Source: a virus
Lineage: Duplodnaviria; Caudoviricetes
DNA length: 61,927 nucleotides
Strand: one strand, 5' to 3'
IMG/VR virus record: IMGVR_UViG_3300027851_000029
Coordinates: 1-61,927 of that record
Below the pieces are notes generated by a model that saw nothing but the letters and a program-made list of their open reading frames with translations, was not told where the DNA came from and made no database searches. Below are positions 2,883 to 43,565 of the stretch, one piece after another. The position numbers and the translations under genes are program-made. Positions within the stretch are counted from its first letter, which is position 1. Every line of letters begins with the position of its first letter.

Positions 2883-3095
2883 ATGAAAAAGCCAGTTGAC
2901 CACTCAGACGCCACCCTGTTGTCCGTGATTTTCGTCATCACGATGGCAGTCCTTGCCTGGGTGGTTTGGGCCGCTCACAAAGACGCCCCAAGGATTCGAG
3001 AGGAATGTGAGGCACGAGGCGGAATGCTCATATCCACGCGGAATGAGCTTTACACCTGCGTTGGCCGACCAACGAAGCCGGTAGACCCGGCATAG
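2883..3095 (+). CDS. small membrane protein
   Basis: One hydrophobic helix followed by C..RGG......C. Confidence 0.55.
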   Translation: MKKPVDHSDATLLSVIFVITMAVLAWVVWAAHKDAPRIREECEARGGMLISTRNELYTCVGRPTKPVDPA

Positions 3096-3127
3096 GGTTA
3101 GACACCCAGCCAGCCAGCCCGGAGACT
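3091..3127 (+). promoter_or_regulatory. late promoter 1 (CATAGGGTT-N22-GAGACT), leaderless to terS
   Basis: Motif with identical spacing recurs 8 times at starts of late modules; ATG 7 nt after the -10-like hexamer. Confidence 0.75.
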
Positions 3128-3134
3128 CCCGGGC

Positions 3135-3824
3135 ATGGCAACAAAACCCAGCGGGAAGAAGCCCGCGCCCACGCAGGCCCCCACTCAACCCACGAAACCC
3201 GCCCGACCAGCCAAAGGTTCGGCGGGTTCTGGCGTTTCCGCAAAGAAGCGCAAGCGGGTTGATTGGGACGCCGTGGAGCGCGACTACCGCACGGACCACT
3301 TCACCAACGTCGAAATCTGCAACAAGCACAGCATTGCCCCTGCAACCCTGAGCCGAAAGATCAAGAAGGACCAGGAGAAGGATTCGACCAGTTGGCAGAA
3401 AGACCTGTCCGCTGCTGTCAGGAAGGCCACCAATGCCGCTCTGATGGCCGATATGGTCAAGGCCAAGGTCAATGAGGGTCAAGAGCAGGTCAATTTCACG
3501 GTCAAGGCCGCTGCAGAAGTCAACAAACAGATCATTCTGAGCCACCGAGAACGACTTCGCACTATGCAAGCGGATGCCGACATGGTGCGCAACAAACTGC
3601 TGCAGATGGCCGACATGGTTTCGGATGTGCGAGAGGCTGCGACGCTTGTCAGTGCTCTTGAGGCATCAGCCAGGACGGCAAAGATCGTGATCGAAGCCGA
3701 GCGCAAGTCCTTTGGGCTGGATGAAGCCAACGCCGACAACAACCCGAACACGCCCGGCTACCTTCCGCCATCCGTCACGGTCACGTTTGTGTCGCCACCA
3801 GCGCGCGAAGAGGACGACGAATGA
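3135..3824 (+). CDS. terS: terminase small subunit
   Basis: VDWDAVERDYRT HTH, coupled directly upstream of terL. Confidence 0.8.
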   Translation: MATKPSGKKPAPTQAPTQPTKPARPAKGSAGSGVSAKKRKRVDWDAVERDYRTDHFTNVEICNKHSIAPATLSRKIKKDQEKDSTSWQKDLSAAVRKATNAALMADMVKAKVNEGQEQVNFTVKAAAEVNKQIILSHRERLRTMQADADMVRNKLLQMADMVSDVREAATLVSALEASARTAKIVIEAERKSFGLDEANADNNPNTPGYLPPSVTVTFVSPPAREEDDE

Positions 3825-5107
3825 CCGAAGTCGCCGAACTCCCGCGCCTGGACATGCCCGAGAAGCTGGCCGGCATCTGGAAGCCACGCCGGTACAAGGC
3901 CATGCACGGCGGGCGAGGTGGCGGCAAGTCTTGGACCGTGGCCGGCGTGCTGCTGCTGATGGCCGCTGGCGCACCGCTGCGGGTGCTTTGCGCGCGTGAA
4001 ATCCAGAAGTCCATGAAGGACTCGGTTCACCGGCTGCTGACCGACCAGATCAACCGCCTGCACCTGCATGGGTTCTTCGAGGTGCTGGACACCGAGATTC
4101 GCGGCATCAATGGCTCGCTGTTCCTGTTCACCGGCCTGCAGAGCCACACCGTGGACTCGATCAAGTCCTTTGAGGGCGTGGACATCGTTTGGGTCGAAGA
4201 AGCCCACGGCGTGAGCAAAAAGAGTTGGGATGTGCTGATCCCGACCATCCGAAAGGAAGGCTCAGAAATCTGGCTCACCCTGAACCCGGACATGGAAACC
4301 GACGAGACCTATCAGCGGTTCATCGCCCACCCGAGCCCGGACACATGGGTTTGCGAAATCAACTGGCGCGACAACCCCTGGTTTCCCCGCGTGCTGGACG
4401 ACGAGCGAAAGAAGGCCAAGCGGACCATGCTCAAGGACGACTACGAGCATATCTGGGAAGGCAAAGCCCGCCGCGTGGCCGCTGGCGCCATCTACCGGCA
4501 CGAGGTCGAGACGATCTATCTTGATGGCCGTGTTTGCGCGGTGCCATATGACCCGATCCTGCCGGTGCACACGATATGGGACTTGGGCTGGAACGATGCT
4601 ATGACCATCGGCCTGGTGCAGAAGGGCCCACAGGACATCCGCATCATCGGCTACATCGAGGATAGCCACCGCACGCTCGATTGGTACGTGGCCAAGCTGG
4701 AGAAGCTGCCCTACCGCTGGGGCATCGACTTCCTTCCCCACGACGGCAAGACAAAGAACTTCCAGACCGCCAAGTCCACCGAGGACCGTATGAAAGAACT
4801 TGGGCGCAGGCCGTACCCCGGCTGCTTGCCCATGCAGAACGTCGAGGAAGGCATCAAGGCCGCGCGCATGGAGTTCCCGAAGTGCTACTTCGATGAACTG
4901 AAGACCGCGCGCCTGCTGGAGTGCCTGAAACGCTACCAGCGCCAGATCCACACCGTGACGAACGAGCCCATGGGGCCGCTGCACGACGAATTCAGCCATG
5001 GCGCCGATATGTTCCGCTACCTCGCCCAGGCGGTCCAGCTCATGAAGAACGAACCAGTGCACAGCAAACAGGAAGAAGAGCGCGTCACCGAAGACTGGCG
5101 CTTGTGA
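3821..5107 (+). CDS. terL: terminase large subunit (PBSX/Terminase_3-like)
   Basis: Walker A GGRGGGKS, Walker B VWVEEA, LNP coupling motif, nuclease WDLG and HGADMFRY. Confidence 0.95.
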   Translation: MTEVAELPRLDMPEKLAGIWKPRRYKAMHGGRGGGKSWTVAGVLLLMAAGAPLRVLCAREIQKSMKDSVHRLLTDQINRLHLHGFFEVLDTEIRGINGSLFLFTGLQSHTVDSIKSFEGVDIVWVEEAHGVSKKSWDVLIPTIRKEGSEIWLTLNPDMETDETYQRFIAHPSPDTWVCEINWRDNPWFPRVLDDERKKAKRTMLKDDYEHIWEGKARRVAAGAIYRHEVETIYLDGRVCAVPYDPILPVHTIWDLGWNDAMTIGLVQKGPQDIRIIGYIEDSHRTLDWYVAKLEKLPYRWGIDFLPHDGKTKNFQTAKSTEDRMKELGRRPYPGCLPMQNVEEGIKAARMEFPKCYFDELKTARLLECLKRYQRQIHTVTNEPMGPLHDEFSHGADMFRYLAQAVQLMKNEPVHSKQEEERVTEDWRL

Positions 5108-22759: not shown

Positions 22760-22846
22760 AAGCTCCGAGGCATAATGCTGGCATGGATATCAATCAGTTC
22801 TCGGTTCGATGTTTGCTCGCCCGTTGAGCTGGAGGGCCTTGACCGC

Positions 22847-24112
22847 ATGAGCGCGCCTGCCATCACACGAGCAACCGTGCTGCGCCTGTACCCAAATCAG
22901 CAGCAGGCATCGTCCCTGCGCCGATGGCAGGGAGTGCTGCGCTACGTCTGGAATGCAGCACTGGACTGCATGTTCACGTCACGCGACATCAACGGCCGCT
23001 GGCCCACGAAGGCCGAGATCCAGACCCTGATCGTTGGGATGAAGAAAATGGAGGGGACCGAGTGGATCTCCGACATCCCCGCTCACGCGCTGCTGACGCT
23101 GGCCGACGATCTGCACAAAGCGTTGCTCAACTGGTTCAACAGTCTCTCGGGCAAGCGCAAAGGCCCAAAGATTGCCCGACCACGCTTCCGAGGAAAGTTT
23201 GCCCGGCAGTTCTCGATCTACATGGTCAACCAGAACACTTCGTTCGGCGAGGGCCAGGTCAAACTGCCCAAGCTGGGCCTGGTGAAGTATCGGGGCGGCG
23301 ACCTCCCTTCCGGTCGCCTGCTGTCCAGTCGCGTCTACCGCGAGGCGGACAAGTGGTACATGGCCAGCATCTTCGAGTGCACTGCACCGGAGGTGAATGC
23401 CGCACCTGTTGAATGCGTTGGCATCGACATGGGCCTCAAGACGTTGGCCACCATCTATGACGGTCATAGCATCCGCGAGGTGCCAAAGTTGGGCGCCCTG
23501 CGAAAGCATGAGCAGAGGCTGAAGCGATACCAGCGACGGATGAGCCGCCGTGTCAAGGGGAGCAACCGCCGCAACCGTGCCAAGCTGGCCATCGCACGGC
23601 TGCACCAGCGCATCGCCAACATCCGCAAGGACTACGCGCACAAGGCCACCAGCGAGATCGTGGCCAGTGCGCAAACTATCAAGGTCGAGACCCTCAACGT
23701 CAAGGGCTGGGCGAAGAACCGAAGCATCTCCAAGAGCACCGCCGACGCCAGCGTCGGGATGTTCCTGAAAATGCTGCGCTACAAGGCCGCCTTGGCAGGC
23801 AGGAGCCTGGTTGAGGTTGGCCAATGGGAGCCGACCAGCAAGACCTGCAGCGACTGCGGTGCCCGTGAGCCCGGCGTGGTTCTGGGCGTCAGTCGATGGG
23901 TGTGCAGCGCCTGTGGCGCGATCCACGATCGCGATCACAACGCGGCAAAGAACATTTATGCGTACGGCGAGGAACGCCGAAACGTGACCGGCAACACGGT
24001 CGAAAGCGCGTGGACTGGTGGAGATCAGGCGGGAGCAATCTCGCCAGTGCCCCAGGTTGAAACGCGAATCTTGAAACGGGCCACGCGCGAGTCAAATCGC
24101 GCGCTTGCCTAA
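22847..24112 (+). CDS. tnpB: RNA-guided endonuclease TnpB
   Basis: N-terminal LRLYPN HTH, RuvC-I GIDMG, RuvC-II KVETL, Zn ribbon CSDC..CSAC, RuvC-III DRDHNAA; RBS GGAGG at 22831. Confidence 0.95.
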   Translation: MSAPAITRATVLRLYPNQQQASSLRRWQGVLRYVWNAALDCMFTSRDINGRWPTKAEIQTLIVGMKKMEGTEWISDIPAHALLTLADDLHKALLNWFNSLSGKRKGPKIARPRFRGKFARQFSIYMVNQNTSFGEGQVKLPKLGLVKYRGGDLPSGRLLSSRVYREADKWYMASIFECTAPEVNAAPVECVGIDMGLKTLATIYDGHSIREVPKLGALRKHEQRLKRYQRRMSRRVKGSNRRNRAKLAIARLHQRIANIRKDYAHKATSEIVASAQTIKVETLNVKGWAKNRSISKSTADASVGMFLKMLRYKAALAGRSLVEVGQWEPTSKTCSDCGAREPGVVLGVSRWVCSACGAIHDRDHNAAKNIYAYGEERRNVTGNTVESAWTGGDQAGAISPVPQVETRILKRATRESNRALA

Positions 24113-24184: not shown

Positions 24185-26023
24185 ATGCAAGGCTTTCACC
24201 CGCAGAAACACAAGACCCAGCCGAAGAACTACGCCAATGGCGGCATCGTCAAGGGGCCAGGAAGCGGCACGTCCGATAGCGTTCCGGCCATGGTTCCCAA
24301 GGACGGCTACGTCATGCCAGCCGACTCCGTGCAGGCGCTGGGATTCAAGCCCGGCATGCGCGCTGTGCAGTTGAGTGATGGCGAGGCGGTGCTGAACCCG
24401 CAGCAGGTGCAGGCCGCTGGCGGGTTTCAGGCGCTGGATGCGATGAAGGCCGCCACGCACACGCCGGTACCCGAGCAGGGCGCAGAAGGGCAGAAGTTCT
24501 TTTTTGTCAACGGCGGGCCGCTGGACGATGAAAAGCGCAAGCCGTTCATGCCGACGCTGGCGCCCGAAGTGCAGCAGGGCATGACCAAGATGTACAGCGC
24601 CAGCATGCCGCCGCAGCCGCAGCCGACCCCAGCCGCCGTGCAGCCTCCTGCCGCGAGTGGTTTCGTTTCCAGCATGGAGCGGAATCAGCGCGCTCTTGAC
24701 GCATCGACGGCATCCGGCCCGGCAGTCCCGGCCGCAAAGCCGGTGAACCCGACAGAGGTCGAGGGCTGGAGAACCAAGGCGGTCATGGATGGGGCAGCCG
24801 AAGACGCGCAAGCCGCATGGGACCGCGGCCAGGTCGGGCAAGCTGCCGGCGCCGTGGCTCGTGGGGCCATCACAGCTGTACCGACAGCCATCGGAGAATT
24901 CGCCTACAACACCGTGGCGCCCGTTGCTGGTGCTGCGAAAGGCTTCTGGAATGGCCTGACTGGCGGTGCTGATGCCACTCAGATCCCGGTGACGCCGGCT
25001 CAGGCCGCGCCAGTTGTTCCGCCCGCCACCCAGGCGCAACCAGCCGATCGCCCGCCAGCCGCGACCCAGGCCGTGGCGCCATCCGGTCAGCCTGAAAAAC
25101 CAGGCACGCCAGCCGCCCAGGCGAACGCACAAGCCCCTGCTGTAACCCAAGTCGCACCCGGCGTGTTCCAGCACGGGCGCGGCCAGTTCAGCGACAACGC
25201 CGCCGGCATGGGCTTCAAGCCCGGCTTCACCGGCCAGCCCAGCGCGCAGAACATGGACGCCGCCGACAACCTGGCGCAGCGATCCGCTGCCCGTGGGTTC
25301 ACGCCGCAGGTTCAAGCCCCAGCGCCCGTGGCGTCTCAGAACCTCACGCCACCCGACACCGGGCAGGGCTATGGTTTCGGCCTGGCGAACTCCAGCCGCA
25401 TCCAGCAGCGCAACCTGTCGATGGATGTGCAGCAGAACAAGCCCGGTGCAAAACTGGCGCTCCAAGGATTCTTGCAGCAGCAGGCCGACGCACCAGGCCA
25501 GCAGATCGAGCGCGACCGACTGGCGCAGTCCGCGACCAACTCGGCCGCCGACCGTGGCTTCCGCTCGCAGGAACTGACCGCTCGCATGGGTGACTCAGCC
25601 GCCAATCGCGACCTGAAAGCACAGGAACTGGCCGACAACTCGGCGACGAACAGCATCAAGCGCGATGCCGCTGGCGTGGATCTGGAGACGGCGAAGCAGA
25701 TGCAGAAGCTGCAGAGCGACTACATCAATGCCAAGACGCCGGAAGCCCAGGCCGCAGCAGCGAAGAAGATCCAGACGCTGGCCGGCAAGCAGGACAAGGA
25801 CAACCGCTTCACGGTGGTTCCTGGCGGGCAGGAGTTCGATGCCGCGGCCGGCGTGATGCGCAACGTGCCTGCGCGCGTGCTGAACAACCAGACCGGGCAG
25901 TTTGTCGATGGTGGGCAAGGTGGGCAGGCGCAGCTTCCACCAGGCATGACGAAGCAAGTCGGGACATCGAACGGGAAGCCTGTCTATGAGGACGCCACCG
26001 GAAAGCGATTCATCGGAGGTTGA
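24185..26023 (+). CDS. internal virion (ejection) protein
   Basis: GGIVKGPGSGTSDSVPAM motif, Ala/Gln/Pro-rich; lies before the giant protein. Confidence 0.7.
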   Translation: MQGFHPQKHKTQPKNYANGGIVKGPGSGTSDSVPAMVPKDGYVMPADSVQALGFKPGMRAVQLSDGEAVLNPQQVQAAGGFQALDAMKAATHTPVPEQGAEGQKFFFVNGGPLDDEKRKPFMPTLAPEVQQGMTKMYSASMPPQPQPTPAAVQPPAASGFVSSMERNQRALDASTASGPAVPAAKPVNPTEVEGWRTKAVMDGAAEDAQAAWDRGQVGQAAGAVARGAITAVPTAIGEFAYNTVAPVAGAAKGFWNGLTGGADATQIPVTPAQAAPVVPPATQAQPADRPPAATQAVAPSGQPEKPGTPAAQANAQAPAVTQVAPGVFQHGRGQFSDNAAGMGFKPGFTGQPSAQNMDAADNLAQRSAARGFTPQVQAPAPVASQNLTPPDTGQGYGFGLANSSRIQQRNLSMDVQQNKPGAKLALQGFLQQQADAPGQQIERDRLAQSATNSAADRGFRSQELTARMGDSAANRDLKAQELADNSATNSIKRDAAGVDLETAKQMQKLQSDYINAKTPEAQAAAAKKIQTLAGKQDKDNRFTVVPGGQEFDAAAGVMRNVPARVLNNQTGQFVDGGQGGQAQLPPGMTKQVGTSNGKPVYEDATGKRFIGG

Positions 26024-26419
26024 TCATTCGCCGTCGAGCTTGCCGTGAAACGGCTTCAAGCCGGGTTGCGGTGCGTCGCTCAAAAACCTCTCAACCTCGC
26101 TTGGCTGGTCGGAATTCTCCACCGGCCTCGCGCGGTAGTCCTGCCAGTTGGCCAGAAGCATCAGCACCAGAATGAGCCAAGCCGACTTGATTGGCGTGTA
26201 CGGCCATGCGACCCTTGCTCGTTCAGGCGAAATCAGGGCCAGCACGCCGAACAGCACTGCCGCGATGATGGCCGCCCCAACGGGGAGCATGGCCCAGGCC
26301 TCAAACGGGCTGGAGTCGAAGTAGATCAACGGGTTTGCCAGCGCGATGACAGCCATGCCAGCGGCATGCCGGGCTACCGTGATTGCTATCGGTGTGCTTT
26401 TCTCTTGCGCAAGCTCCAT
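26024..26419 (-). CDS. membrane protein, about 3 TM helices (moron; candidate superinfection exclusion)
   Basis: RBS AGGAG and extended -10 TGcTATATT (26440-26448, minus strand); antisense to the late operon; ends LKPFHGKLDGE. Confidence 0.7.
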   Translation of the reverse strand: MELAQEKSTPIAITVARHAAGMAVIALANPLIYFDSSPFEAWAMLPVGAAIIAAVLFGVLALISPERARVAWPYTPIKSAWLILVLMLLANWQDYRARPVENSDQPSEVERFLSDAPQPGLKPFHGKLDGE

Positions 26420-26457
26420 GCCATTCTCCTGTTTGGCGCAATATAGCACCATCCCGG

Positions 26458-26494
26458 CATAGGGTTGGACGCCGAGCGACGCACCCGCGAAAGT
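26458..26494 (+). promoter_or_regulatory. late promoter 6, leaderless to the giant protein
   Basis: CATAGGGTT-N22-GAAAGT, ATG 6 nt later. Confidence 0.75.
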
Positions 26495-26500
26495 GCGGGG

Positions 26501-29500
26501 ATGGCGAACAACGACATCACTCCATTCGACGGCGAACTTGACGAAATCAAGCCAGCCACTATCAAACCGTTCGATGGGAGCCTGGATGGCGAAACACCAT
26601 CCCGAGGCTTCAAGGGTTGGGCGCAAGACATCGGCGCCACCGCATTGAAGGGTGCCATCGGCGTGCCCGAAGCCCTGGTTGGTCTGGCCGACATCCCAAC
26701 CGGTGGCGCAGTCGGAAAGTTCTTGGAGAACGAAGGCGGTTCTGTCGGCTTCCGGCCCAAGCAGGCCAAGGAAATCGCCAACGACTGGCACTCCGACGCC
26801 ACCAAGCAGGCGCAGCAGAAGTTCCAAGCCGCTGAAGGCATTGGCGGCAAGCTGCAGGCGGCCATCGAAAACCCCAGCATCATCGCCACGTCGATTGGCG
26901 AATCGCTTCCTGCCATGGGTGCCGGCGGTGTCGCAGCGCGCGGCCTGCTGGCGGCAACCCGACTCGGTGCCATGGGCGCCCAGGGCGCGGCCATTGCCGG
27001 CGCTGCCGGTGAAGGCGCGATGATGGCTGGCCAGCAGGCCGAATCCATCCGCCAGGAAACCGCCGATGGCTATCTGACGCCAGGACAGTCCGCTCTCGCA
27101 GCTGGAACCGGCCTGATCGGTGGCGTGGTCGGTGCTGCCAGCGGGCGACTCGCCAACAAGCTGGGCGTCGGCGACGTGGACACGATGGTTGCCCAGGGCG
27201 CCAAGGCCTTGAAGCCCGTCACGCCGCTGGTGCAACAGCAGGCCATCAAGAGCATTCCCAAGCAGATCATCCAGGGCGCCATCACAGAAGGTTTCCTCGA
27301 AGAATTGCCGCAGTCGGTGGCCGAGCAGGTGCTGCAGAACATCGCGCTGGGCAAAGACTGGCATCAGGACGTGGACGCCGCGATTGTGCTGGGCACCTTG
27401 TCGGGTGGCGCCATGGGTGGCGGTGCAGCCGGGTTCAAGGGCTACATGGACCGCAGCACAACAGGGCCGGCGCCTGTCACGCCGCCGAAGCCCGGCCTTG
27501 ACCGCATGCGCCAGGAGTACGAGGCCCGTCTCGCGCAGCTCGCGCAAGAGGAATCCGGCGAACCACAGGTACCCCAGACCACGCCGCCCAATGGCCGAGC
27601 CATCCTCGACGCTCAAGCAGCGCAGGCCAAGGCCGCCAAGGATGCGCAGACCGCAGCAAACCGCGCGGTGATGACGCCAGATGACGAGATTTTCCAATCG
27701 ACCGGCGCCACGGTGCCACGTTCGGTGCAGATGGGCCTGAACCCAGCCAAAGGCGCCATGAGCGCCGCCGCCGCCGTGGCCGTTGACACTGGCGCCGCCG
27801 ATCAGGTGCAGCAACAGAACGCGATGACACAGGCCGCAGAGGCTGCATCGCAGGAGGCAAAGAAGCCCGCCAAGAAGTACGCACACCGCGTCAATGGCAC
27901 GCTGGATGGCAAGCCGTTTCAAACCATGGTCATGGCCGAATCGCCAGATGAAGCCATGGTCGCAGCCGTCAAGGCATCGCATGGCCTGCAGCCTTCAGCC
28001 GCCGAACCCGTTTCCAAAACCGCAACCCCTACCGCAACCCCTACCGCAACCCCGGGAGAAACCACCCTTGAGCCTCAAGCCATTGAGCCCGTCCAAACAG
28101 TCGCGAAAGAACCGCAAGCACAACCAGCCGTCGAAGGAGTAACCGATGTTGCCGATCAAACCAAGGCCGTTGCTCCCATGGCGCAAGCGAGCGAACCTGA
28201 AACGCAGAATCCAGGCGGCGAAGGCGGCAGCCCAGAGTCTGGGCCAGCAAGCAGCGTACGCCCTGAAATCACTACAGCTCCCGCAGATCTGAAGCCACCG
28301 CGCGGCATCCTGGCCAAGAAGGCAGAAGCCGACGCAGCCCGAGCAGGAGCAAAGAATGAACAAGCCACCCAGCCCACCGCCGCCGACACCAGCCCAGCTA
28401 CGGCGCCAGCAGCAGGCCGCACTGGTGTTTCTGGAGTCGATGAACAGGGTGCCGTACCGGCATTGAGCAATGTCCAAAACCCACAGAGCCGACCCGCCGG
28501 AACCGAAACCCAAGCCGCGCCAGTTGAAGCGAGCACGCCAGCACGAGGCGATGCAGCCGCAGCCGCTGGAATTCCCGCAGCGGGACAAGACGCCGGTGTA
28601 CGGGCGGATGGGGTAAGCGACGAGGCGCCGACCGTACAGCAGTTGCGCGACATGCCGATTGACACAAAGGAGCAGGCCAAGGCCTACGCCGATGGCTACG
28701 CAAAACGACTGGCCGCAGAGGCCAAGTACGGGCAGGGCCGGTTCATCGGAGCCAATGAGAAGCCGTGGTCTGTTGCCAACGCTGACCTTGCAGAAAAGAA
28801 CGTCAGGGCCAATGAGGCGGCAGAACTGAACTACTGGCAGAAGCCATACGAAGATGCCATCAAGGAATTCCGATTCCAAGGATTGCCCCGCGCCAAGTGG
28901 GAAGCAGAGCGCAAGAAACGCGGCATGACAACCGAAGTTGCAGCACCTGGAGCCGGTGACGTCCAAGTCGATGGGGTGAAGATCGCCGAGGCCGCGCACC
29001 AGGCTGCGACCAGCCACAAGAACGACTTGCCGCAACCCACCGAGGCACAGAAAGAAGCTGGCAACTACGCCAAGGGCCACATCACGATCGGCGGCCTTGA
29101 CATCACGATCGAGAACCCAGCCGGCAGCAAGCGCCGCCCAGAGTGGCCCGCGCTCAAGAACCACTACGGCTACTTCAAAGGCTCCATTGGCGCCGACAAG
29201 GATCACGTTGACTTGTTCATGACCGACCGGGCTGGCGATGCCAGCCTGCCGGTGTTCGTGGTGGACCAGACCAACCGCGACGGCACGTTCGATGAACACA
29301 AGGTGATCATGGGCGCCGCCGACGAGGCCGAAGCCCGCGCGACCTACCTGCAAAACTACGAGAAGGGCTGGACCGGACTGGGCGCCATCACACAAATGTC
29401 GCAGGACGAGTTCAAGGCCTGGGTGCGCGACCCGGACAAGACAAAGAAGCCGGTGGCGCTCAAGCGTGGCGTGCTGGCGAAGATGGCAGCGCAGAAGGCA

Positions 29501-32500
29501 AAGGCCGACCAATCCAAGCCGAAGCCTGAAACCACCGCCAAGGCACCGCCAGCAGAGCCGGTGAAGCCTGAGCCAGCACCGCAGCCGAAGGCGGAGAAGC
29601 CTGCCAGCAAGACGCCGACCCTGGACGAGCACACCGCGGCCATCAAGGCGGTGCGCGCCGGCACGGCCAGCATTGAGTCTTACCAGGCCTCATTCGCGTC
29701 CATGGTTGACGACCCGTCTGCCGTCAAGGTTGAGCTGAACACGCTGAACAAGGAAACACTGCTGCGCTCCGGTGGCGCCTTCTTCTACCAGCGCTACAAG
29801 TCAGAAAACAAGGCCGATGTCATCGATGCCATGTACGACGCCCTGGTCAACGAGTACGCGCTGGGCAAGGAGTACGGCCCGACCGGCTACATGATGGGTG
29901 AGCGCAAGAGCTACGATGCCGCCAAGGCCAAAGCGCTGCGCGATCTGGTTGACGGTCAGACCGCCGAAACGCTGGCCGAGTTCGCATCCGAGGTGAAGAA
30001 GGCCAGCGACGAATACAAGGCAGAGCGCGAGACCAGGGCTAAAGCACTGGAAAACCCGCAAACCCTGGATGACTTCCGGGCCGTCATGCGCGAGCACATC
30101 AGAGGTGGAAAGACCCGCAAGGAAGCCTTCCTGATGTTCACGCCAGAACAGCGGGTCAAGTTCGATGAGATGGAGGCTGAGACCACCAAGGAGGCTCGCG
30201 AAACCCGCAAGCGCGAGCGCAAGACAGAAGTCCGTGCGGCAGGCCAGACCACGGGCGGAGAAGTCATTTCCACCAAGCACACCCGAGACGGCTACGACCT
30301 GTTCGTGGTGCAGTTGTCTGATCGCCTGAGCCGTGAGGACTACACGACCGTGCTGGCCAGCGCCAAGAAGTTGGGCGGTTGGTACAGCGCATTCCGCGTG
30401 AAGGGTGCCGTGCCAGGGTTCCAGTTCAAGGACAAGGCAAACGCCGAAGCGTTCTTGAAGCTGGCTGGCGGCGATACGACCGACGCACAAGCGCAGGCCG
30501 AGCAGCGCCGGGATGCCTTCGAGGACAACCGCAGCGAAACCGCAGTGGAGCGGCTGCGCGCCATGGCCGACAAGCTGACCGAGCAGGCTGCCGAGATTGA
30601 GGGCCGCGACCGCAAGACCAACACCGCGCGCCGCGCCCGCTTTGCATCAAGCGCACTGGCCGAGGCTTCCGGCATGAAGGCCAAGGCGCAGACCATGCGC
30701 AACGTGGCGCAAGCCATCGATGACGGCAAGGCAAAGTTTCTGGACGGAATCCGAACCAAGTCCCATGTGGACATGCTGACCGGCCTGGTGGCGACGGCCA
30801 AGAACAACGAGTTGATCGCCAAGTACGAGACCTACGCCGAACAGGAGAAGCGCAAAGGGGAGCCGCCGACCGCTGAGACGGCCGACTTTGCCGAGTTCCC
30901 GGCATTCACCGCCTACCGCTCAGACCTTGCCAGCCTGGCCCGCCAGATGCAGGACGTTGACGGCACGAAAAAACTGGGCGACCAGTTGATGAAGGTGGCC
31001 GACGACGTGTCAGACGCCTATCTGGCGTTCGCCAAGGATCCCGGAAATCTGTTCAAGCTGTCCACGTTCAGCGTGCGCCGCGGCGACGAGGTGAAGGCCG
31101 CCATTTTCCCGAGCAAGGATCTTGCCGAGCGTGCCATCAAGCGCAGCGGGTTGACCGGCAAGGCCATCGTGCTCGCCGAGAAGCGCGGCGTGAACCGCAT
31201 CATCATGAGTCCGAGCGAGGCCATCAATGCTGGCATCTGGACGGGCGACGGCGACAAGCGTATCACTCTGACCGTTGACGCCGGCAACACGCTGGTGGAT
31301 GCCATCGGCCGCCGCGGCAACAAGGCCAACGGTTTGACCGTGCCGTGGCAATTTCAGACCGCAAGCGATCGCCTGAAGGCCCTGGCCCGCATGGGAATCG
31401 AGACACCAGCCGAGTACCGATCGACCTTGCGCGAGTTCATCGGCATGCAGGAGCGTGCAGTCGCCAACAAGGTGCGAGAGATGGAACTTGCTATGGCCGG
31501 CAAGAAGAATGACGGCCTGGACTTCTTCCCGACGCCGGCCGAGGTGGCGGACCAGATGGTGGAGGCCGCCGACCTGTCGCCTGACATGGCGGTTCTGGAG
31601 CCCAGCGCCGGCATGGGGCACATCGCTGACCGCATCCGCGCGGCAGGCGCCGAGCCTGATGTGATCGAGATTTCTCCGGATCGGCGCGAGCTGCTGGAGG
31701 AAAAAGGCTACCACCTTGCCGAGACCGACGACTTCATGGCAATGCAGCCGCGCGGTTTCTTCACCTACGGCGACCGCTTCCGAGCGCCAGACGGCACCGA
31801 TGGGATCATGCGTGGTGTGAGCCAAAGCCGCGTGCGATTGGAAGATGAGCAGGGGAACCGACTGGGCCTGTACGACCGTGACGAATTGACCGGCATCGGG
31901 CACCGCGGCTCATGGAGCGGATACGACCGCATCATCATGAACCCACCGTTCAGCAAGCGCCAGGATGCCGAACATGTAAGGCACGCTTACACGTTGCTCA
32001 AGCCGGGCGGCCGGATTGTGGCGATCATGGGCGAAGGCGTGTTCTTCGGCCAGGACAAGAAGGCCCAGGATTTCCGAGACTGGCTGGACGAAGTTGGCGG
32101 AACCGCCGAGAAGTTGCCGGCCGGCAGCTTCATGGACCCGAGCTTGCCAGTAAACACTGGCGTGAATGCCCGCATGGTGGTGATCGACAAGCCTGCTGGC
32201 GATTTGAAGATGGCCCCGATCGATGACACGGAATCCGACACCACGGAAACCAAGGATGAAGCCAACTACGGCACCAAAGACCAAGCCCAAGGCACCCCCA
32301 CAGACCGCGCCGTCATGGCCATGGCCGGCGACGGCAAGAGCGCCGACGAAATCCTGCGCTTCATCGCCAACGCTTCGAAGTCCCAATTCAACCGCCAGAT
32401 TGCGAACCTGCTGCGCCGCACCAAGGCCAACCCGGCGGTTTCCATCGGTGGCGAAATGGGCGGTGGCGCTGGCTTCAAGTTCCTCGCCAAGTACAGCCGC

Positions 32501-35500
32501 AAGAATCACGAGGTCACGCTGTCCGAAGGCGCCAGCGGCAAGGCCGAGCAGATCCTTCTGCATGAGATGGTGCACGCCGCAACCCTGCTGGCGCTGGACC
32601 GTGGAGGCGAGCACGCGGCCCGCATGAGTGCGCTGTACGAGTCGGTGAAGGCTCAGGGCCTGGATGACGCCTACGGCATGAAGAACGTGGGCGAGTTCGT
32701 GGCCGAAGCGTTCACCAACCCAGAGTTTCAGAAGGCGCTCAAGGGCTACAAGGCCCCGGGCGGAACGGCATGGGATCGGTTCGTCGCAGCGGTGCGCCGC
32801 ATCCTGGGCCTGTCGGACAAGTCGCAGGACGCGCTGTCGGCTGCGCTGGAGCTGGGTGTCGAGGTGATGCGCGAGAACGTGCCGCTGCGCAAGGCGCGCA
32901 GTTTCAGCGCGGAAGATGCGCCGGAATACTTCGGCATGGCCGACGCTGCCAGCCTCAAGCAGTCCGCCCTGGACCAGATCCACCAGACCCTGAGCCACCC
33001 CGGCAAGGTGTCGGTCTGGGATAAAACGATCGGGACAATGCGAAATTTGTCCGAGCGCTCGCCCGCCTTCAAGCCGGTATTCGACGCCGCCCAGCGCTTC
33101 CTTGATGACGTTTCCCTGCTGGCCAACGAAGCCGCCGACGTGGCGCCGCGCCTGCTGCCGAGCGTGGAGTCCTGGCGCGACCTGACTAAGAAGCCGGTCA
33201 GCGCAGAAGACAACAAGGCAATCAGCAAGCCGATCTTTGAGGGCACGCTGATGTGGGGCCGAGACACGGACGGAAAACCCGTTCTGGTGGACGACATGGC
33301 GAAGAAGTACGCCGACCTGAGCACCGAGAAGCGCGCCAAGATGCTGATGGCCGCCGGCCGGCTGGACGACCGCGTGCTTCGCATGTGGCAGGGCCTTCCA
33401 TCGGATCAGTTTGACGCCCTGGTCAACAGCCGCTTCGAGAGCCAGATGCTGAAAGCTGGTGTGGTCTGGAAGGATGCCGAGCTGAAAGCGCTGTTCAACC
33501 TGAACGACCAGCAGATCAGCCTGTACCGCGAAGCCCGTCAGGCCATCGACCGCTCCATCGACCTGACGGCACGCGCCGACATGCTGCGCGCCGTGGGCAC
33601 CGGGTACGCCAGCATGCGAGACGCCGTGCTGGAGTTGCCGACGCTGGCCGACGCCCGCGACTTGTTGGTGGAAACGCTGCACGCCGACGCGCTGGACAAC
33701 GAAGACCAGGCCGACCGGCTGTCCGGGATGATCAACACCATCGCCGATCGGTTTGAGAAGGCGACCAGTCTGATGAAGGACGGTTACGCCCCGCTGTCTC
33801 GCTTTGGCCGCTACACGCTGGATGTGGTGGACGCCAGCGGAGAGCGCCAGTATTTCGGCATGCACGAAACCATCCGCGACGCGAACCTGGCGAAGATCCA
33901 GATGACCGCCGAATTCCCCGGCGCCACGGTCACGCAGGGCACCATGAGCGCGGAAGCCTACAAGCTGTTCGCCGGCATCACACCCGAGTCGCTGGAGCTG
34001 TTCGGCAACATGCTGGGCCTGGACGCCGAAGGTGGCGACGCCCGCGACAAGGCGTTTCAGGAATACCTCAAGCTGTCGAAGAACAACCACAGCGCATTGA
34101 AGCGCCTGATGCACCGAAAGGGCATCGCCGGTTACAGCGAAGACGTGGGCCGGGTGCTGGCGAGTTTCGTCTACTCCAACGCCCGCCAGGCTGCGGGTGG
34201 GCTGAACGCCGGGACCATCGAGGAAGCCGTCAACGCGATCCCGAAGGATCAGGGCGAACTGAAAGACGTTGCGATGGGCCTGCGCGACTACGTGCGCGAC
34301 CCGCAGGAGGAAGGCCAAGCCATCCGCGGCATGCTGTTCGCGCAGTACCTGGGGGGTTCGCTGGCATCGGCTTTCGTCAACACGACGCAGCCGTTCGCCG
34401 TGACCCTGCCGTGGTTGAGCCAGTTCGGCGGCATGAAGGTGGCCGGCAAGCACCTCGCCAAAGCCTTGAAGGACATGGCCGGCAAGGGCGCCTACGAGGC
34501 CGACCTGAAAACCGCGCTGGCCCGCGCCGAAGAAGACGGGGTTGTGTCGCCACAGGAAATTCACGCCCTGATGGCCCAAGCGCGCGGCGCTGGCGGCCTA
34601 CGATCGGGTGATGGCACCCGGGCCGGCAACGCCCGCGCATCCGCATCGAACGCCTGGGAGCGCACGAAAGTGGCATGGGGCCAGCCGTTCGCCCTGGCAG
34701 AGCAGTTCAACCGCCGGTCCACGTTCATCGCGGCCTACCGGCTGGCGAAGGAAAGAGGCATGCAGCGCCCGGACCAGTTCGCGCGCCGCGCGGTGCTGGA
34801 AACGCAGTTTCTCTACTCCAAGGCCAACAAGCCGAAGTGGGCGCGCGGCGCCATCGGAGGCACGCTATTCACCTTCAAGGTCTACAGCATCTCCTACCTT
34901 GAGCTGATGAACCGCATGTGGACGCAAGGCGGACCAGAAGGAAAGCGCTCCGTTGGCTGGGCGATGGTCATGCTGATGCTGATGGGTGGCGCTGGTGGCC
35001 TGCCGTTCTTGGAGGATCTGGAAGATCTGATCGACGGCATCGCGCAACTGATGGGCTACAACGTGAGTTCCAAGCAGTGGCGCAAGCAGGCCATTGAGGA
35101 TGTCATCGGCAAAGAACTGGGCGAGTTCGTCAATTCCGGCCTGTCTGGCCTGCCAGGCGCACCCATCGACGTGTCGGGCCGCCTGGGCATGGGCGACCTG
35201 ATCCCCGGCACCGGCCTGCTCATGACCAAGCAAAGCCGCGAGCGCGACCTGATGGAGATTGTTGGACCGGCCGGCGACTTGGTGGCGCGCGGATTCACCG
35301 GAGCCCGCAAGGCGCTGTCGGGCGACCTGGGTGGCGCGGCGCTGGAACTGTCCCCTGGTGCCGTTCGCAACGCGGCCAAGGGCATCGACATGATCACGTC
35401 GGGCCAGTACAAGGACGCCAAGGGCTACAAGGTGCTCGACACGACGCTACCAGAGGCCGCAGCCAAGCTGATCGGGTTCCAGCCGCGCAGCGTGGCCAAG

Positions 35501-35797
35501 GTGCAGGAGGCCAACAGCTTCATGATGCGCAGCAAGGCCTTCTACTCGCAGCAGAGCGGCGAAATCAAGGCCCAGTGGGCGCGCGCACTGTACGAGAAAG
35601 ACGATGGCGCGCTGCAGGATGTGCGCGATCGCCTGGCGACATGGAACCGGAACAACCCGGATCAGCCGATCGTGGTGAAGATGCCCGATGTCTGGAAGCG
35701 CGTGCGTGAAATGGGCAAGGACCGCACGGAGCGGATCGCCGACACCGCGCCCAAGGCGTTGCGCCAGGAAATGCGGGAGTTGGCACGCGACAACTGA
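26501..35797 (+). CDS. large polyvalent ejection protein (InPase-like, N6-adenine MTase, zincin, PLxRFG domains)
   Basis: PTEAQKEAGNYAKGH..YGYF..GADKDHVD; FFPTP..EPSAG..NPPF; HEMVH; PLSRFG; about 3098 aa from ATG 26501. Confidence 0.85.
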   Translation: MANNDITPFDGELDEIKPATIKPFDGSLDGETPSRGFKGWAQDIGATALKGAIGVPEALVGLADIPTGGAVGKFLENEGGSVGFRPKQAKEIANDWHSDATKQAQQKFQAAEGIGGKLQAAIENPSIIATSIGESLPAMGAGGVAARGLLAATRLGAMGAQGAAIAGAAGEGAMMAGQQAESIRQETADGYLTPGQSALAAGTGLIGGVVGAASGRLANKLGVGDVDTMVAQGAKALKPVTPLVQQQAIKSIPKQIIQGAITEGFLEELPQSVAEQVLQNIALGKDWHQDVDAAIVLGTLSGGAMGGGAAGFKGYMDRSTTGPAPVTPPKPGLDRMRQEYEARLAQLAQEESGEPQVPQTTPPNGRAILDAQAAQAKAAKDAQTAANRAVMTPDDEIFQSTGATVPRSVQMGLNPAKGAMSAAAAVAVDTGAADQVQQQNAMTQAAEAASQEAKKPAKKYAHRVNGTLDGKPFQTMVMAESPDEAMVAAVKASHGLQPSAAEPVSKTATPTATPTATPGETTLEPQAIEPVQTVAKEPQAQPAVEGVTDVADQTKAVAPMAQASEPETQNPGGEGGSPESGPASSVRPEITTAPADLKPPRGILAKKAEADAARAGAKNEQATQPTAADTSPATAPAAGRTGVSGVDEQGAVPALSNVQNPQSRPAGTETQAAPVEASTPARGDAAAAAGIPAAGQDAGVRADGVSDEAPTVQQLRDMPIDTKEQAKAYADGYAKRLAAEAKYGQGRFIGANEKPWSVANADLAEKNVRANEAAELNYWQKPYEDAIKEFRFQGLPRAKWEAERKKRGMTTEVAAPGAGDVQVDGVKIAEAAHQAATSHKNDLPQPTEAQKEAGNYAKGHITIGGLDITIENPAGSKRRPEWPALKNHYGYFKGSIGADKDHVDLFMTDRAGDASLPVFVVDQTNRDGTFDEHKVIMGAADEAEARATYLQNYEKGWTGLGAITQMSQDEFKAWVRDPDKTKKPVALKRGVLAKMAAQKAKADQSKPKPETTAKAPPAEPVKPEPAPQPKAEKPASKTPTLDEHTAAIKAVRAGTASIESYQASFASMVDDPSAVKVELNTLNKETLLRSGGAFFYQRYKSENKADVIDAMYDALVNEYALGKEYGPTGYMMGERKSYDAAKAKALRDLVDGQTAETLAEFASEVKKASDEYKAERETRAKALENPQTLDDFRAVMREHIRGGKTRKEAFLMFTPEQRVKFDEMEAETTKEARETRKRERKTEVRAAGQTTGGEVISTKHTRDGYDLFVVQLSDRLSREDYTTVLASAKKLGGWYSAFRVKGAVPGFQFKDKANAEAFLKLAGGDTTDAQAQAEQRRDAFEDNRSETAVERLRAMADKLTEQAAEIEGRDRKTNTARRARFASSALAEASGMKAKAQTMRNVAQAIDDGKAKFLDGIRTKSHVDMLTGLVATAKNNELIAKYETYAEQEKRKGEPPTAETADFAEFPAFTAYRSDLASLARQMQDVDGTKKLGDQLMKVADDVSDAYLAFAKDPGNLFKLSTFSVRRGDEVKAAIFPSKDLAERAIKRSGLTGKAIVLAEKRGVNRIIMSPSEAINAGIWTGDGDKRITLTVDAGNTLVDAIGRRGNKANGLTVPWQFQTASDRLKALARMGIETPAEYRSTLREFIGMQERAVANKVREMELAMAGKKNDGLDFFPTPAEVADQMVEAADLSPDMAVLEPSAGMGHIADRIRAAGAEPDVIEISPDRRELLEEKGYHLAETDDFMAMQPRGFFTYGDRFRAPDGTDGIMRGVSQSRVRLEDEQGNRLGLYDRDELTGIGHRGSWSGYDRIIMNPPFSKRQDAEHVRHAYTLLKPGGRIVAIMGEGVFFGQDKKAQDFRDWLDEVGGTAEKLPAGSFMDPSLPVNTGVNARMVVIDKPAGDLKMAPIDDTESDTTETKDEANYGTKDQAQGTPTDRAVMAMAGDGKSADEILRFIANASKSQFNRQIANLLRRTKANPAVSIGGEMGGGAGFKFLAKYSRKNHEVTLSEGASGKAEQILLHEMVHAATLLALDRGGEHAARMSALYESVKAQGLDDAYGMKNVGEFVAEAFTNPEFQKALKGYKAPGGTAWDRFVAAVRRILGLSDKSQDALSAALELGVEVMRENVPLRKARSFSAEDAPEYFGMADAASLKQSALDQIHQTLSHPGKVSVWDKTIGTMRNLSERSPAFKPVFDAAQRFLDDVSLLANEAADVAPRLLPSVESWRDLTKKPVSAEDNKAISKPIFEGTLMWGRDTDGKPVLVDDMAKKYADLSTEKRAKMLMAAGRLDDRVLRMWQGLPSDQFDALVNSRFESQMLKAGVVWKDAELKALFNLNDQQISLYREARQAIDRSIDLTARADMLRAVGTGYASMRDAVLELPTLADARDLLVETLHADALDNEDQADRLSGMINTIADRFEKATSLMKDGYAPLSRFGRYTLDVVDASGERQYFGMHETIRDANLAKIQMTAEFPGATVTQGTMSAEAYKLFAGITPESLELFGNMLGLDAEGGDARDKAFQEYLKLSKNNHSALKRLMHRKGIAGYSEDVGRVLASFVYSNARQAAGGLNAGTIEEAVNAIPKDQGELKDVAMGLRDYVRDPQEEGQAIRGMLFAQYLGGSLASAFVNTTQPFAVTLPWLSQFGGMKVAGKHLAKALKDMAGKGAYEADLKTALARAEEDGVVSPQEIHALMAQARGAGGLRSGDGTRAGNARASASNAWERTKVAWGQPFALAEQFNRRSTFIAAYRLAKERGMQRPDQFARRAVLETQFLYSKANKPKWARGAIGGTLFTFKVYSISYLELMNRMWTQGGPEGKRSVGWAMVMLMLMGGAGGLPFLEDLEDLIDGIAQLMGYNVSSKQWRKQAIEDVIGKELGEFVNSGLSGLPGAPIDVSGRLGMGDLIPGTGLLMTKQSRERDLMEIVGPAGDLVARGFTGARKALSGDLGGAALELSPGAVRNAAKGIDMITSGQYKDAKGYKVLDTTLPEAAAKLIGFQPRSVAKVQEANSFMMRSKAFYSQQSGEIKAQWARALYEKDDGALQDVRDRLATWNRNNPDQPIVVKMPDVWKRVREMGKDRTERIADTAPKALRQEMRELARDN
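28019..28053 (+). repeat. 12-bp tandem repeat x3 (ACCGCAACCCCT, encoding TATP)
   Basis: Read directly from the sequence. Confidence 0.9.
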
Positions 35798-42147: not shown

Positions 42148-42388
42148 GTTGGCACTGGTGTTGGCATCATGTCCTGATGACCGTGAAACACCGTTGATTT
42201 TGAAGCGAAAAACTGGCGAGCGTGGAATCCTCTCGCTCCGCCAATTTGCCCCAGCGTTACCCATCAGTAACGCTGGGGCTTTCTTTTTTTCCCTCTATGA
42301 TCGCGGCTCCATCCACCAGGATAGCCCGACATTTCCAGACGTTCACGGCGATAGACCGTGTGGCATCGGTTGGCATCCGTGGTGGCAC
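42148..42388 (+). other. attP: tRNA 3'-end-like core with arm-type repeats
   Basis: GAATCCTCTCGCTCCGCCA at 42225-42243; TGGCA(T/C) direct repeats at 42148-42168 (x2) and 42358-42388 (x3). Confidence 0.7.
42248..42290 (+). terminator. intrinsic terminator behind the att core
   Basis: Perfect 13-bp stem GCCCCAGCGTTAC/GTAACGCTGGGGC plus T run. Confidence 0.85.
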
Positions 42389-42410
42389 GCAAAAAGTGAC
42401 AGGGATGCGG

Positions 42411-43565
42411 ATGCCTACAAACCAACTTACAGACGCCAAGTGCCGCGGCGTGAAGCCGACCGACAAGGCGCAGAAGCTTTTCGATGGTGGGTCACTTTTT
42501 CTATACGTTTCCCCAAAAGGCGCCAAGGTGTGGCGCCTGGCCTACAGGGTCAACGGCAAGCCGCAGACCCTGGTGATAGGCCCATACCCTGCAGTGAGCC
42601 TGCAGGAGGCCCGCCAGAAGCGCGAAGAGGCCAAGGCGGTACTCAGGGCAGGGCAGGACCCGAACGCGGCGCGCAAGGCCACGCGCAACGCCGTCACGCT
42701 GGACGAGGCCCACACCGCCTACTGGTCCGGCCGCAAAGACCTGTCCGCCTCCTACCTTGAGAACGAACGACGGGCATTCGAGATGCATGTTCAGCCGATG
42801 CTGGGCTCGAGGGTCATGAAGGACATCACCCGGGCCGACGTGCTGGCCACGCTGAACACACTGGACGCGCGCGGCAAGCACGACTACGTGCGCAAGGTCA
42901 GGATGTGGCTGGCCCAGCTCTGGGACTGGGCTATCGAGCAGGGCCACGCCACGGAGAACCCGCCGCGCAGCATCAAGCCTGAACGGGCCTTCGGGAAAAA
43001 GCAGGTGGGGCACTTCGCGGCGCTGGAGTTGCGCGAGGTGCCGGCGTTCATGGAGCGCCTGGCCATAGAGGGCGACATTCAATCCGTCCTGGCGCTGCGC
43101 CTGCTGGCCCTGACGTGGGTACGGACGAACGAACTGCGGTTTATGCGCTGGGATGAAATCGACGGAGACACATGGCTGATCCCGGCCGGCAAGATGAAGC
43201 GGCGCCGGGAGCATGTGGTTCCGCTGTCCAAGGCTTCGCAGGATCTGCTGGCGGTGCTCAAGCCACGCGCTGGCTCAAGCGTCTATGTGCTGCCCGCCGA
43301 GCACCGGCCTGACCGTCCGATTTCAGAGAATGCAATACTGGCGCTGCTGTACCGCATGGGATTCAAAGGTCAGATGACTGGCCACGGGCTGCGCTCGGTG
43401 GCCAGCACCTGGGCGAACGAGGCAGGCTATCCGCCCGACGTGATCGAGCGCCAGTTGGCGCATGTGCCTGGAGACAAGACCAGGGCTGCGTACAACCGAT
43501 CGATTTACCTCGATCAGCGCCGCGCCATGCTGGAGGCTTGGGCTATGTGGCTCTGTCGTGCGTAA
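42411..43565 (+). CDS. int: tyrosine integrase, P4-like
   Basis: LTDAKCR..KLFDGGSLFL arm-binding domain; catalytic R (VRTNE), K (GKMK), HGLR, LAH, Y (AAYNR). Confidence 0.95.
   Translation: MPTNQLTDAKCRGVKPTDKAQKLFDGGSLFLYVSPKGAKVWRLAYRVNGKPQTLVIGPYPAVSLQEARQKREEAKAVLRAGQDPNAARKATRNAVTLDEAHTAYWSGRKDLSASYLENERRAFEMHVQPMLGSRVMKDITRADVLATLNTLDARGKHDYVRKVRMWLAQLWDWAIEQGHATENPPRSIKPERAFGKKQVGHFAALELREVPAFMERLAIEGDIQSVLALRLLALTWVRTNELRFMRWDEIDGDTWLIPAGKMKRRREHVVPLSKASQDLLAVLKPRAGSSVYVLPAEHRPDRPISENAILALLYRMGFKGQMTGHGLRSVASTWANEAGYPPDVIERQLAHVPGDKTRAAYNRSIYLDQRRAMLEAWAMWLCRA

Follow-up and report, generated by a model that had tools for sequence, protein, structure and literature searches.

A predicted membrane protein of a temperate phage ends in a copy of its own giant ejection protein's N-terminal motif and may act as a peptide decoy

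A temperate phage carries a small antisense gene for a predicted membrane protein whose C-terminal tail copies the short motif at the start of the phage's own giant virion protein, and this match recurs in many motif versions across related phages, which points to a peptide decoy that keeps related phages from injecting their DNA, although this function is inferred rather than shown. To test this hypothesis, which was first raised by a sequence-only reading of the 61,927-base stretch analysed here (hereafter the window; IMG/VR record IMGVR_UViG_3300027851_000029), we examined the small gene, its neighbours and their homologues. The 131-aa product ends in GLKPFHGKLDGE, and the 3098-aa giant begins with MANND followed in order by ITPFDGELDE, IKPAT and IKPFDGSLDGE. 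The pattern PF.G.LD occurs three times in the six-frame translation of the window, all at these sites (100 mononucleotide shuffles, mean 0.05, maximum 1), and the local alignment of the small protein against the first 45 aa of the giant scores 46 (shuffled controls 21.8 +/- 3.8, 0 of 500 reaching 46). Eight identical residues lie in the aligned 11-mer, and five of them use different codons, as the sequence-only reading had noted. Coordinates of the features are collected in Table 1.

Table 1 Features of the window discussed in the text.
Position	Strand	Feature	Remarks
24185-26023	+	612-aa protein encoded just upstream of the giant	Inferred IVP-C-like ejection partner, by position only
25920-26020	+	C-terminal module (CTM) of the 612-aa protein	About the last 30 aa; candidate docking site for the motif
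26024-26419	-	Small carrier gene (family A)	131 aa; three predicted membrane helices and a disordered C-terminal tail
26027-26062	-	Tail mimic GLKPFHGKLDGE	Residues 120-131, the C-terminus itself
26107-26092	-	Terminator-like site	Lies inside the small ORF
26129-26389	-	Membrane anchor	Residues 11-97; predicted topology N-terminus in, C-terminus out
26426-26430	-	AGGAG ribosome site of the small gene
26440-26448	-	Extended -10-like element TGCTATATT (TGnTAnnnT)	21-29 nt before the ATG of the small gene
26454-26470	+	Conserved 17-nt motif upstream of the giant gene	Function unknown
26501-35797	+	Giant virion protein, polyvalent and IVP-D-type	3098 aa; ATG at 26501
26504-26605	+	Hypervariable N-terminal motif cassette (NTM)	Two PFDGxLD copies at 26516-26542 and 26561-26593
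42222-43565		Tyrosine integrase

The sequence-only reading had named covariation of the two motifs across relatives as its test, and this test is passed. In the membrane-protein family, which was defined by a hidden Markov model of the whole protein (family A) and not by its tail, 12 of 15 testable loci carry a clear copy of their own giant's N-terminal motif, one match is weak (locus L031) and two tails are of a different type (L035 and L048); the own-pair score sum is 665 against 407 +/- 34 for permuted pairings (maximum 575), with 0 of 50,000 permutations reaching it. The two mismatched loci fit heterotypic exclusion but are not predicted by strict self-matching. Ten motif types show a matched pair. 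A search of 5.8 billion proteins returned 13 family-A homologues, none with a name or Pfam family; 12 of 13 family-A tails from the protein database best match some giant NTM at a score reached by 9 or fewer of 200 shuffles, and the same 12-mer type ends 6 of 6 same-type homologues, including one that is only 43% identical in the body. The carriers L004, L006, L009 and L010 could not be paired with a giant, since a search of their records for the giant N-terminal region found no match. Across tail/NTM pairs, 82 of 146 identical residues (56%) use different codons and nucleotide identity over the aligned segments is 0.60, so the match is held at the protein level.

Two unrelated scaffolds carry the same kind of tail, namely family B (L032 and L075) and family C (L049, L057 and L058/L071), the latter with a signal peptide, judged by eye, that would place the tail in the periplasm. 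For all 20 carriers the own-pair sum is 896 against 543 +/- 38 (0 of 20,000 permutations), but families B and C were found through the motif match itself and cannot count towards the statistics, and non-family-A carriers were sought in only 59 of the 80 giant loci. As an independent check, a body-only tblastn search with family C found 10 records of isolated Pseudomonas aeruginosa Hollowayvirus phages, in which the homologues are mostly unannotated, although S1 Table and S1 Fig of PMC5217972 might list an ORF in the phiC725A gap. In LKA5, phiC725A and E220 the ORF ends with KKPWEEY and the giant starts with two KPWEEF copies; H66 has the same motif type, with no gene between gp58, gp59 and gp60. 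Families A (P0001) and B (L032) found no match by tblastn against 50,697 phage records. Pfam and PHROG searches returned no hit for the small protein and nothing informative for 10 other carriers, the only hits being below-cutoff DUF6320 and 7TMR and a weak phrog_479.

Hydropathy analysis of the small protein gave three hydrophobic segments, and its AlphaFold2 model has helices at residues 11-32, 38-63 and 74-97 and a low-confidence tail (mean pLDDT 63). Loop 64-78 has three K/R, whereas loop 35-43 has two D/E and no K/R. Periplasmic exposure of the tail is supported by the positive-inside pattern and by analogy with the signal-peptide carrier, but we caution that it remains an inference from charge bias, a model of limited confidence and that analogy. 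A host-type promoter is likewise suggested by conservation, since TG.TA...T lies 27-38 nt before the start in 17 of 19 carriers of three unrelated protein families, and families A and C share the leader and ribosome site; however, a consensus two-hexamer scan found 0 promoter-like sites in 25800-26800, so the element rests on direct reading and on its conservation in relatives. No terminator follows the stop codon. In phages 8P, USP_18 and H66 the stop of the upstream gene overlaps the start of the giant gene with no gene between them, consistent with the small gene being a moron. Of the 'late promoter' placed beside the small gene by the sequence-only reading, we can confirm only that a 17-nt motif recurs four times in the window at up to three mismatches, always on the + strand, against 0.16 expected, and that a related sequence precedes the giant gene in relatives.

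The giant has an InPase domain at residues 848-975 (Pfam, E 4.7e-44), PHROG hits to giant virion and DarB-like proteins (profiles of 2900-4647 residues), consistent with descriptions of polyvalent proteins (PMC5512222), and homology to H66 gp60, whose record notes verification by mass spectrometry and which is classed as an IVP-D homologue (PMC4819975). The 612-aa protein matches PHROG 11341, of unknown function (E 6e-46), and is syntenic with the gene before the giant in phages 8P, USP_18, H66 and LKA5. The window and L012 giants are 82% identical over 330 aa yet carry different NTM types; identity to L012 falls to 33-50% across the NTM, between flanks of 63-83% and 90-100%, and to 33-53% from 25920, leaving two discrete variable patches, CTM plus tail and NTM. 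Co-occurring variant contigs break at 26505 and 26601.

The suggestion that the binding site lies on the neighbouring 612-aa protein fits the data, as its last ~30 aa switch type together with the motif. Twenty-eight of 30 nearest neighbours agree (Mantel r 0.28, 0 of 3000 permutations), and all 35 pairs with a similar protein body but a different CTM also have low NTM similarity (scores 16-52, against 44-218 for pairs that share a type). AlphaFold2 gives the CTM as a three-strand beta unit, the most confident part of the model (pLDDT 81-87). The CTM is not itself a third copy of the motif (sum 512 against 495 +/- 20, reached by 4147 of 20,000 permutations). We caution that the CTM, tail and NTM lie within about 700 bp and can travel as one recombination block, so that their covariation may reflect linkage, and a predicted complex of the CTM segment with the tail (residues 93-131) gave no verdict (score 0.09) and was not used as evidence either way.

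Taken together, we favour, with moderate confidence, the interpretation that the small gene is an autonomously expressed moron of a temperate F116/H66-like podophage, encoding an inner-membrane protein that displays a disordered C-terminal peptide in the periplasm. When a related phage ejects its internal proteins, the displayed copy would compete with the incoming giant's NTM for its docking site, most likely the CTM, so that the trans-envelope conduit fails to assemble and DNA does not enter. In this interpretation specificity lies in the tail alone, which is carried on interchangeable scaffolds and in some cases carries several motif types. Periplasmic exposure, expression in lysogens, binding to the CTM and exclusion are all inferred. 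More tentatively, and slightly less likely than not, F116/H66-like podophages may assemble their conduit through a swappable lock-and-key pair of a dozen or more types, the lock being the CTM of the IVP-C-position protein and the key the tandem NTM of the giant. Prophages would then exploit this code with peptide-display exclusion proteins, in which a conserved promoter and leader cassette drives any of several periplasm-exposed scaffolds ending in one or several copies of the key, exclusion specificity could be read from sequence and reprogrammed by tail exchange, and the arms race with these decoys would drive the cassette swapping.

An alternative interpretation is that exclusion still occurs by mimicry but that the shared partner is a host periplasmic or inner-membrane factor, which the tail would saturate. 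The motifs are indeed tandem and short and lie in the poorly conserved first ~35 residues of the giant, the tails are periplasmic by inference, and nothing ties the tail to the CTM physically; nevertheless, we consider this unlikely because at least 12 motif types occur on giants that are otherwise up to 82% identical and each type goes with its own CTM type, which fits a phage-encoded, co-varying partner better than a conserved host protein. It is also unlikely, though possible, that the tail serves the phage's own cycle, with the newly made decoy stripping or capping leftover ejected proteins after DNA entry so as to reseal the channel, limit envelope damage or stop their re-engagement. The tail matches the phage's own type in most loci and carriers sit inside the ejection-gene cluster, but multi-type tails (L004 and L049) and heterotypic tails (L035 and L048) have no use against the phage's own proteins, and the promoter-like element is of host sigma-70 type in a gene antisense to the late operon, as for prophage-expressed morons.

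Least likely of all is that the similarity is a by-product of DNA events without a function of its own, either an inverted duplication or gene conversion between the two ends of the block, or an invertible segment whose in-frame inversion would fuse the membrane anchor to the giant. The two copies do form an inverted repeat at the DNA level around a ~500-bp segment, and the whole 25920-26610 block looks like a single exchanged unit. However, the codon divergence described above argues against recent copying, the match recurs on unrelated scaffolds and in LKA5 at a site about 2 kb from the motif, and no strand-switch joints appeared in contigs of three runs, although contigs drop rare forms. 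A reading in which the tail acts as a packaging signal that brings the small protein into capsids was rejected because one carrier family has a signal peptide and the others are membrane proteins.

With respect to known systems, the giant is an IVP-D homologue in the F116 group (PMC4819975) and the gene before it occupies the IVP-C position; the step proposed to be blocked is the assembly of a periplasm-spanning conduit of the T7-type ejectosome (IVP-C/IVP-D, gp15/gp16); to our knowledge, a tandem N-terminal docking motif paired with a C-terminal module of the upstream protein has not been described for any ejectosome, and the pair would be the first candidate protein-protein contact in the ejectosome of this phage group. 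HK97 gp15 (PMC10883804), T4 Imm and Spackle, TP-J34 Ltp and T5 Llp are phage-encoded envelope proteins that stop a second phage at or before DNA entry, Spackle by binding a virion protein domain in the periplasm and Ltp as a surface lipoprotein, but as far as the texts consulted go none is described as carrying a copy of a virion protein's own motif or as having a family of interchangeable specificities.

The closest precedent is P22 SieA, a small inner-membrane protein with three predicted helices that is encoded antisense directly after an ejection-protein gene with its own promoter, and whose escape mutations map to the C-terminal regions of ejection proteins (PMC10883804). There is no sequence similarity between the two (BLASTP of P0001 against SieA of P22, type A only, gave no alignment at E <= 100), and SieA shows no copy of any segment of gp7, gp20 or gp16, its scores of 26-28 lying at shuffle level. 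How exclusion proteins such as SieA recognise their targets is an open question, and it has been considered hard to see how such interactions survive the diversity of ejection proteins (PMC10883804). If our interpretation is correct, it offers a sequence-readable answer for one large phage group, in that the excluder carries a copy of the target's own docking peptide, and it would provide a way to predict which prophage excludes which phage, of relevance to phage therapy against P. aeruginosa, where LKA5/phiC725A-type prophages carry an unannotated candidate decoy, as well as a small, modular handle for engineering or evading exclusion. The three SieA types did not differ in target specificity (PMC10883804), whereas here the proposed specificity is written in an exchangeable tail.

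The window is a 61.9-kb virus record estimated to be 96% complete, and is distantly related at the DNA level (65-69%) to Pseudomonas phages 8P, USP_18 and the F116/H66 group. It encodes a tyrosine integrase and so is temperate, and it also encodes RdgC, a YqaJ-like recombinase domain and a DnaB helicase. A 612-aa protein gene is followed on the same strand by the gene of a 3098-aa giant protein, and between them lies an antisense 131-aa ORF whose stop codon abuts the stop of the 612-aa gene; a TnpB/IS605 OrfB-type gene sits inside the virion-gene block just before the 612-aa gene. The giant has an InPase domain (E 4.7e-44) and matches PHROG profiles of giant virion and DarB-like proteins. Its homologue H66 gp60 is annotated as verified by mass spectrometry and was classed as an IVP-D (T7 gp16-type) internal virion protein fused to cytoplasm-destined domains (PMC4819975), and such polyvalent proteins are predicted to be packaged and injected (PMC5512222).

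Coordinates of features in the window and in other records
Record	Feature	Position	Strand	Remarks
Window	TnpB / IS605 OrfB-type gene	22775-24112	+	OrfB_IS605, Cas12f1-like TNB and HTH_OrfB_IS605 domains
Window	612-aa protein	24185-26023	+	
Window	131-aa ORF	26024-26419	-	
Window	3098-aa giant protein	26501-35797	+	ATG at 26501
Window	Tyrosine integrase	42222-43565		
Window	17-nt motif, four occurrences	3087, 10889, 26454, 36034	+	Ahead of gene blocks
Window	Block exchanged relative to locus L012	25920-26610		
Window	Departures of minor variant contigs	25914->26229 and 26505->26601		Edges of the two variable patches
LKA5 (L106, NC_073675.1)	Unannotated ORF with KKPWEEY tail	3902-4297	+	Also in L108, L109 and L107
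L020/L024	135-aa antisense ORF	3024-3431	-	No resemblance to the giant's motif
L022/L047	99-aa antisense ORF, C-terminally anchored	3061-3360	-	No resemblance to the giant's motif
P22 (L104)	Gene 7	370-1059		Ejection protein gp7

The resemblance proposed in the sequence-only reading, between the C terminus of the small protein and the N terminus of the giant, holds and is not due to chance. The small protein ends GLKPFHGKLDGE, and the giant begins with ITPFDGELDE and IKPFDGSLDGE. PF.G.LD occurs three times in all six frames of the window, only at these places (shuffles gave a mean of 0.05), and the local alignment scores 46 against 21.8 +/- 3.8 for shuffled controls, with 0 of 500 reaching it. 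Five of the eight identical residues use different codons.

The small protein belongs to a family (family A) with a constant body and exchangeable tails. A search of 5.8 billion proteins found 13 proteins, none named and none with a Pfam family. Their bodies align well, with 15 invariant columns, but their tails fall into several unrelated types, and near-identical bodies can carry different tails, as in the database proteins P0007 and P0012; conversely, a member only 43% identical in the body has the same 12-residue tail as the window protein. Searches of virus, genome and metagenome contigs with the family alignment gave 4, 3 and 9 loci (designated here by L numbers). The giants, in turn, start with a tandem pair of a short motif that varies between otherwise similar proteins. 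An alignment of ten giant N-terminal regions is conserved from about residue 35 onward, and the window giant is 82% identical to those of loci L012 and L020, yet the first ~35 residues differ in kind. A search with that alignment returned 80 loci, the best of 105, whose predicted N termini (start codons of giants and carriers were chosen by simple rules) show at least a dozen motif types, nearly always as two copies. One giant, in L072, carries mixed types, with PFxGxLD copies together with two GPWxxYS copies; giants too may stack several motifs.

To test whether tail and motif covary, a hidden Markov model of family A was applied to the 80 giant loci and found the family antisense upstream of the giant in 11, which together with the earlier loci gives 15 distinct loci in which both the carrier and the giant's N terminus can be read. 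Seven further distinct family A loci (L004, L006/L019, L008/L016/L017, L009, L010, L013 and L014/L015) could not be paired because the contig ends or no giant was found. In 12 of the 15 the tail carries a clear copy of that locus's own giant motif, although in L021 the copy sits in the linker that follows the membrane anchor; one match is weak (L031; 62 of 500 shuffles reach it) and two loci carry a motif of another type (L035 and L048). The sum of own-pair scores is 665, against 407 +/- 34 for permuted pairings (maximum 575; 0 of 50,000 permutations reached it), and the test is conservative because several loci share a type. Since loci of one type are not independent, types are the fairer count, and ten motif types have at least one matched pair: PFxGxLD, VDxFLxD, IDxILKxAP, DWEKGxL, WWKxG, FFDQFD, FDPxxA, FSYExA, NPFxDPxYG and KPWEE[FY]. 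Twelve of the 13 database tails best match some giant motif at a score reached by 9 or fewer of 200 shuffles; P0008 does not.

Unrelated scaffolds carry the same kind of tail. A scan of the upstream 3.5 kb of 59 of the 80 loci for any ORF resembling the giant's N terminus revealed two further carrier kinds, each ending in a copy of its own giant's motif: family B (L032 and L075), a different multi-helix membrane protein, and family C (L049, L057 and L058/L071), which has an N-terminal signal-peptide-like segment (basic start, hydrophobic run and AxA-type site, judged by eye) and a Cys-containing domain. We do not count these as tests because they were found through the match itself. However, a tblastn search with only the body of family C (residues 26-113) then found 10 records of isolated P. 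aeruginosa Hollowayvirus phages. In LKA5, phiC725A and E220 the ORF lies antisense in the gap before the 612-aa homologue, is unannotated, and encodes a signal-peptide protein that ends with KKPWEEY, while the giant starts with two KPWEEF copies; in Atpa001 three short opposite-strand genes are annotated over it. This is an independent pass, although it counts as one event because the records are near-identical. In JBD90 (L110, a record marked UNVERIFIED) the same ORF changes frame exactly at the start of the motif, so that the tail is lost, which could be a sequencing error or a real inactivation. H66 has the same giant motif and no gene in either gap.

Some tails hold several types or copies (L004, L049 and L056), and long forms (L013, L021 and L035; L008/L016/L017, L048 and L049) have an extra C-terminal globular domain after the motif, one kind of which is shared between family A (L008 and L048) and family C (L049), with a weak phrog_479 hit. 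The same intergenic site also holds other antisense ORFs in L020/L024 and L022/L047, and is a hot spot for inserted genes.

The match is kept at the protein level. Over the 17 matched loci, 82 of 146 identical residues (56%, excluding Met and Trp) use different codons, and nucleotide identity over the aligned segments is 0.60, about what independent codon choice would give; recent duplication, gene conversion or an active inversion system therefore does not explain the match. Contigs of three metagenome runs showed no strand-switch joints. In the run that holds the window best, low-depth variant contigs do depart from the window exactly at the edges of the two variable patches, which suggests co-occurring phages with other cassettes, but this is a weak hint only, because these are contigs with short sides.

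The small protein has three predicted hydrophobic helices, with a K/R-rich loop between helices 2 and 3 and an acidic loop between helices 1 and 2. The positive-inside rule then puts the tail outside the cytoplasm, and the signal-peptide carrier supports a periplasmic site of action. TGCTATATT lies 21-29 nt before the start codon, and TG.TA...T is found 27-38 nt before the start in 17 of 19 carriers of all three families; the leader and ribosome site are nearly identical between some family A and family C genes. This looks like a shared host-type expression cassette, as expected for a moron, and the flanking genes abut in 8P, USP_18 and H66; no transcript data exist, and a consensus promoter scan was negative. 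On the opposite strand, a 17-nt motif (CCGGCATAGGGTTGGAC-like) occurs 4 times in the window, against 0.16 expected, and related sequence precedes the giant gene in distant relatives; it may be a phage-specific late promoter or a leader element.

The likely target is the last ~30 residues of the 612-aa protein (the C-terminal module, CTM), which come in types that track the type of the giant's N-terminal motif (NTM). For 28 of 30 loci that have a close CTM neighbour, that neighbour also shares the motif type (Mantel r = 0.28; 0 of 3000 permutations reached it), whereas body similarity predicts the motif poorly (r = 0.11), and all 35 pairs with similar bodies but different CTMs also have low NTM similarity (scores 16-52, against 44-218 for pairs that share a type). 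For example, the window and L060 share both CTM and motif type although their proteins are barely alignable. In three of the unpaired family A loci (L004, L006 and L014), the tail type agrees with the type of the adjacent CTM. The association holds where 1.4-2.4 kb of other genes separate the two (L025, L039, L049, L058 and L063). We caution that it could still be linkage because, against L012, the window shows one exchanged block with two near-random patches (CTM plus tail, and NTM) around a 63-83% identical middle, with flanks 83-100% and 90-100% identical. The CTM is not itself a copy of the motif, and is modelled as a small three-strand beta unit with the best confidence in its segment.

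Although everything functional here is inferred, the best-supported reading is superinfection exclusion by peptide mimicry. We prefer this to a role in assembly because the carriers are exported or membrane-embedded while the virion proteins are made in the cytoplasm, and the tail can therefore meet the giant's partner only after ejection from an incoming particle. Alternative interpretations are that the target is a host factor, that the protein has a role in closing the phage's own entry channel, or that the similarity is a functionless DNA by-product.

Literature searches, which did not extend to subscription journals or supplementary files, found no description of an exclusion protein that copies a virion protein motif, or of tandem N-terminal docking motifs in these giants. 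The P22 record notes that the N-terminal 20 residues of ejection protein gp7 are cleaved by the host OpdA protease. P22 SieA is the closest system in form and position, but it is neither homologous nor a mimic.
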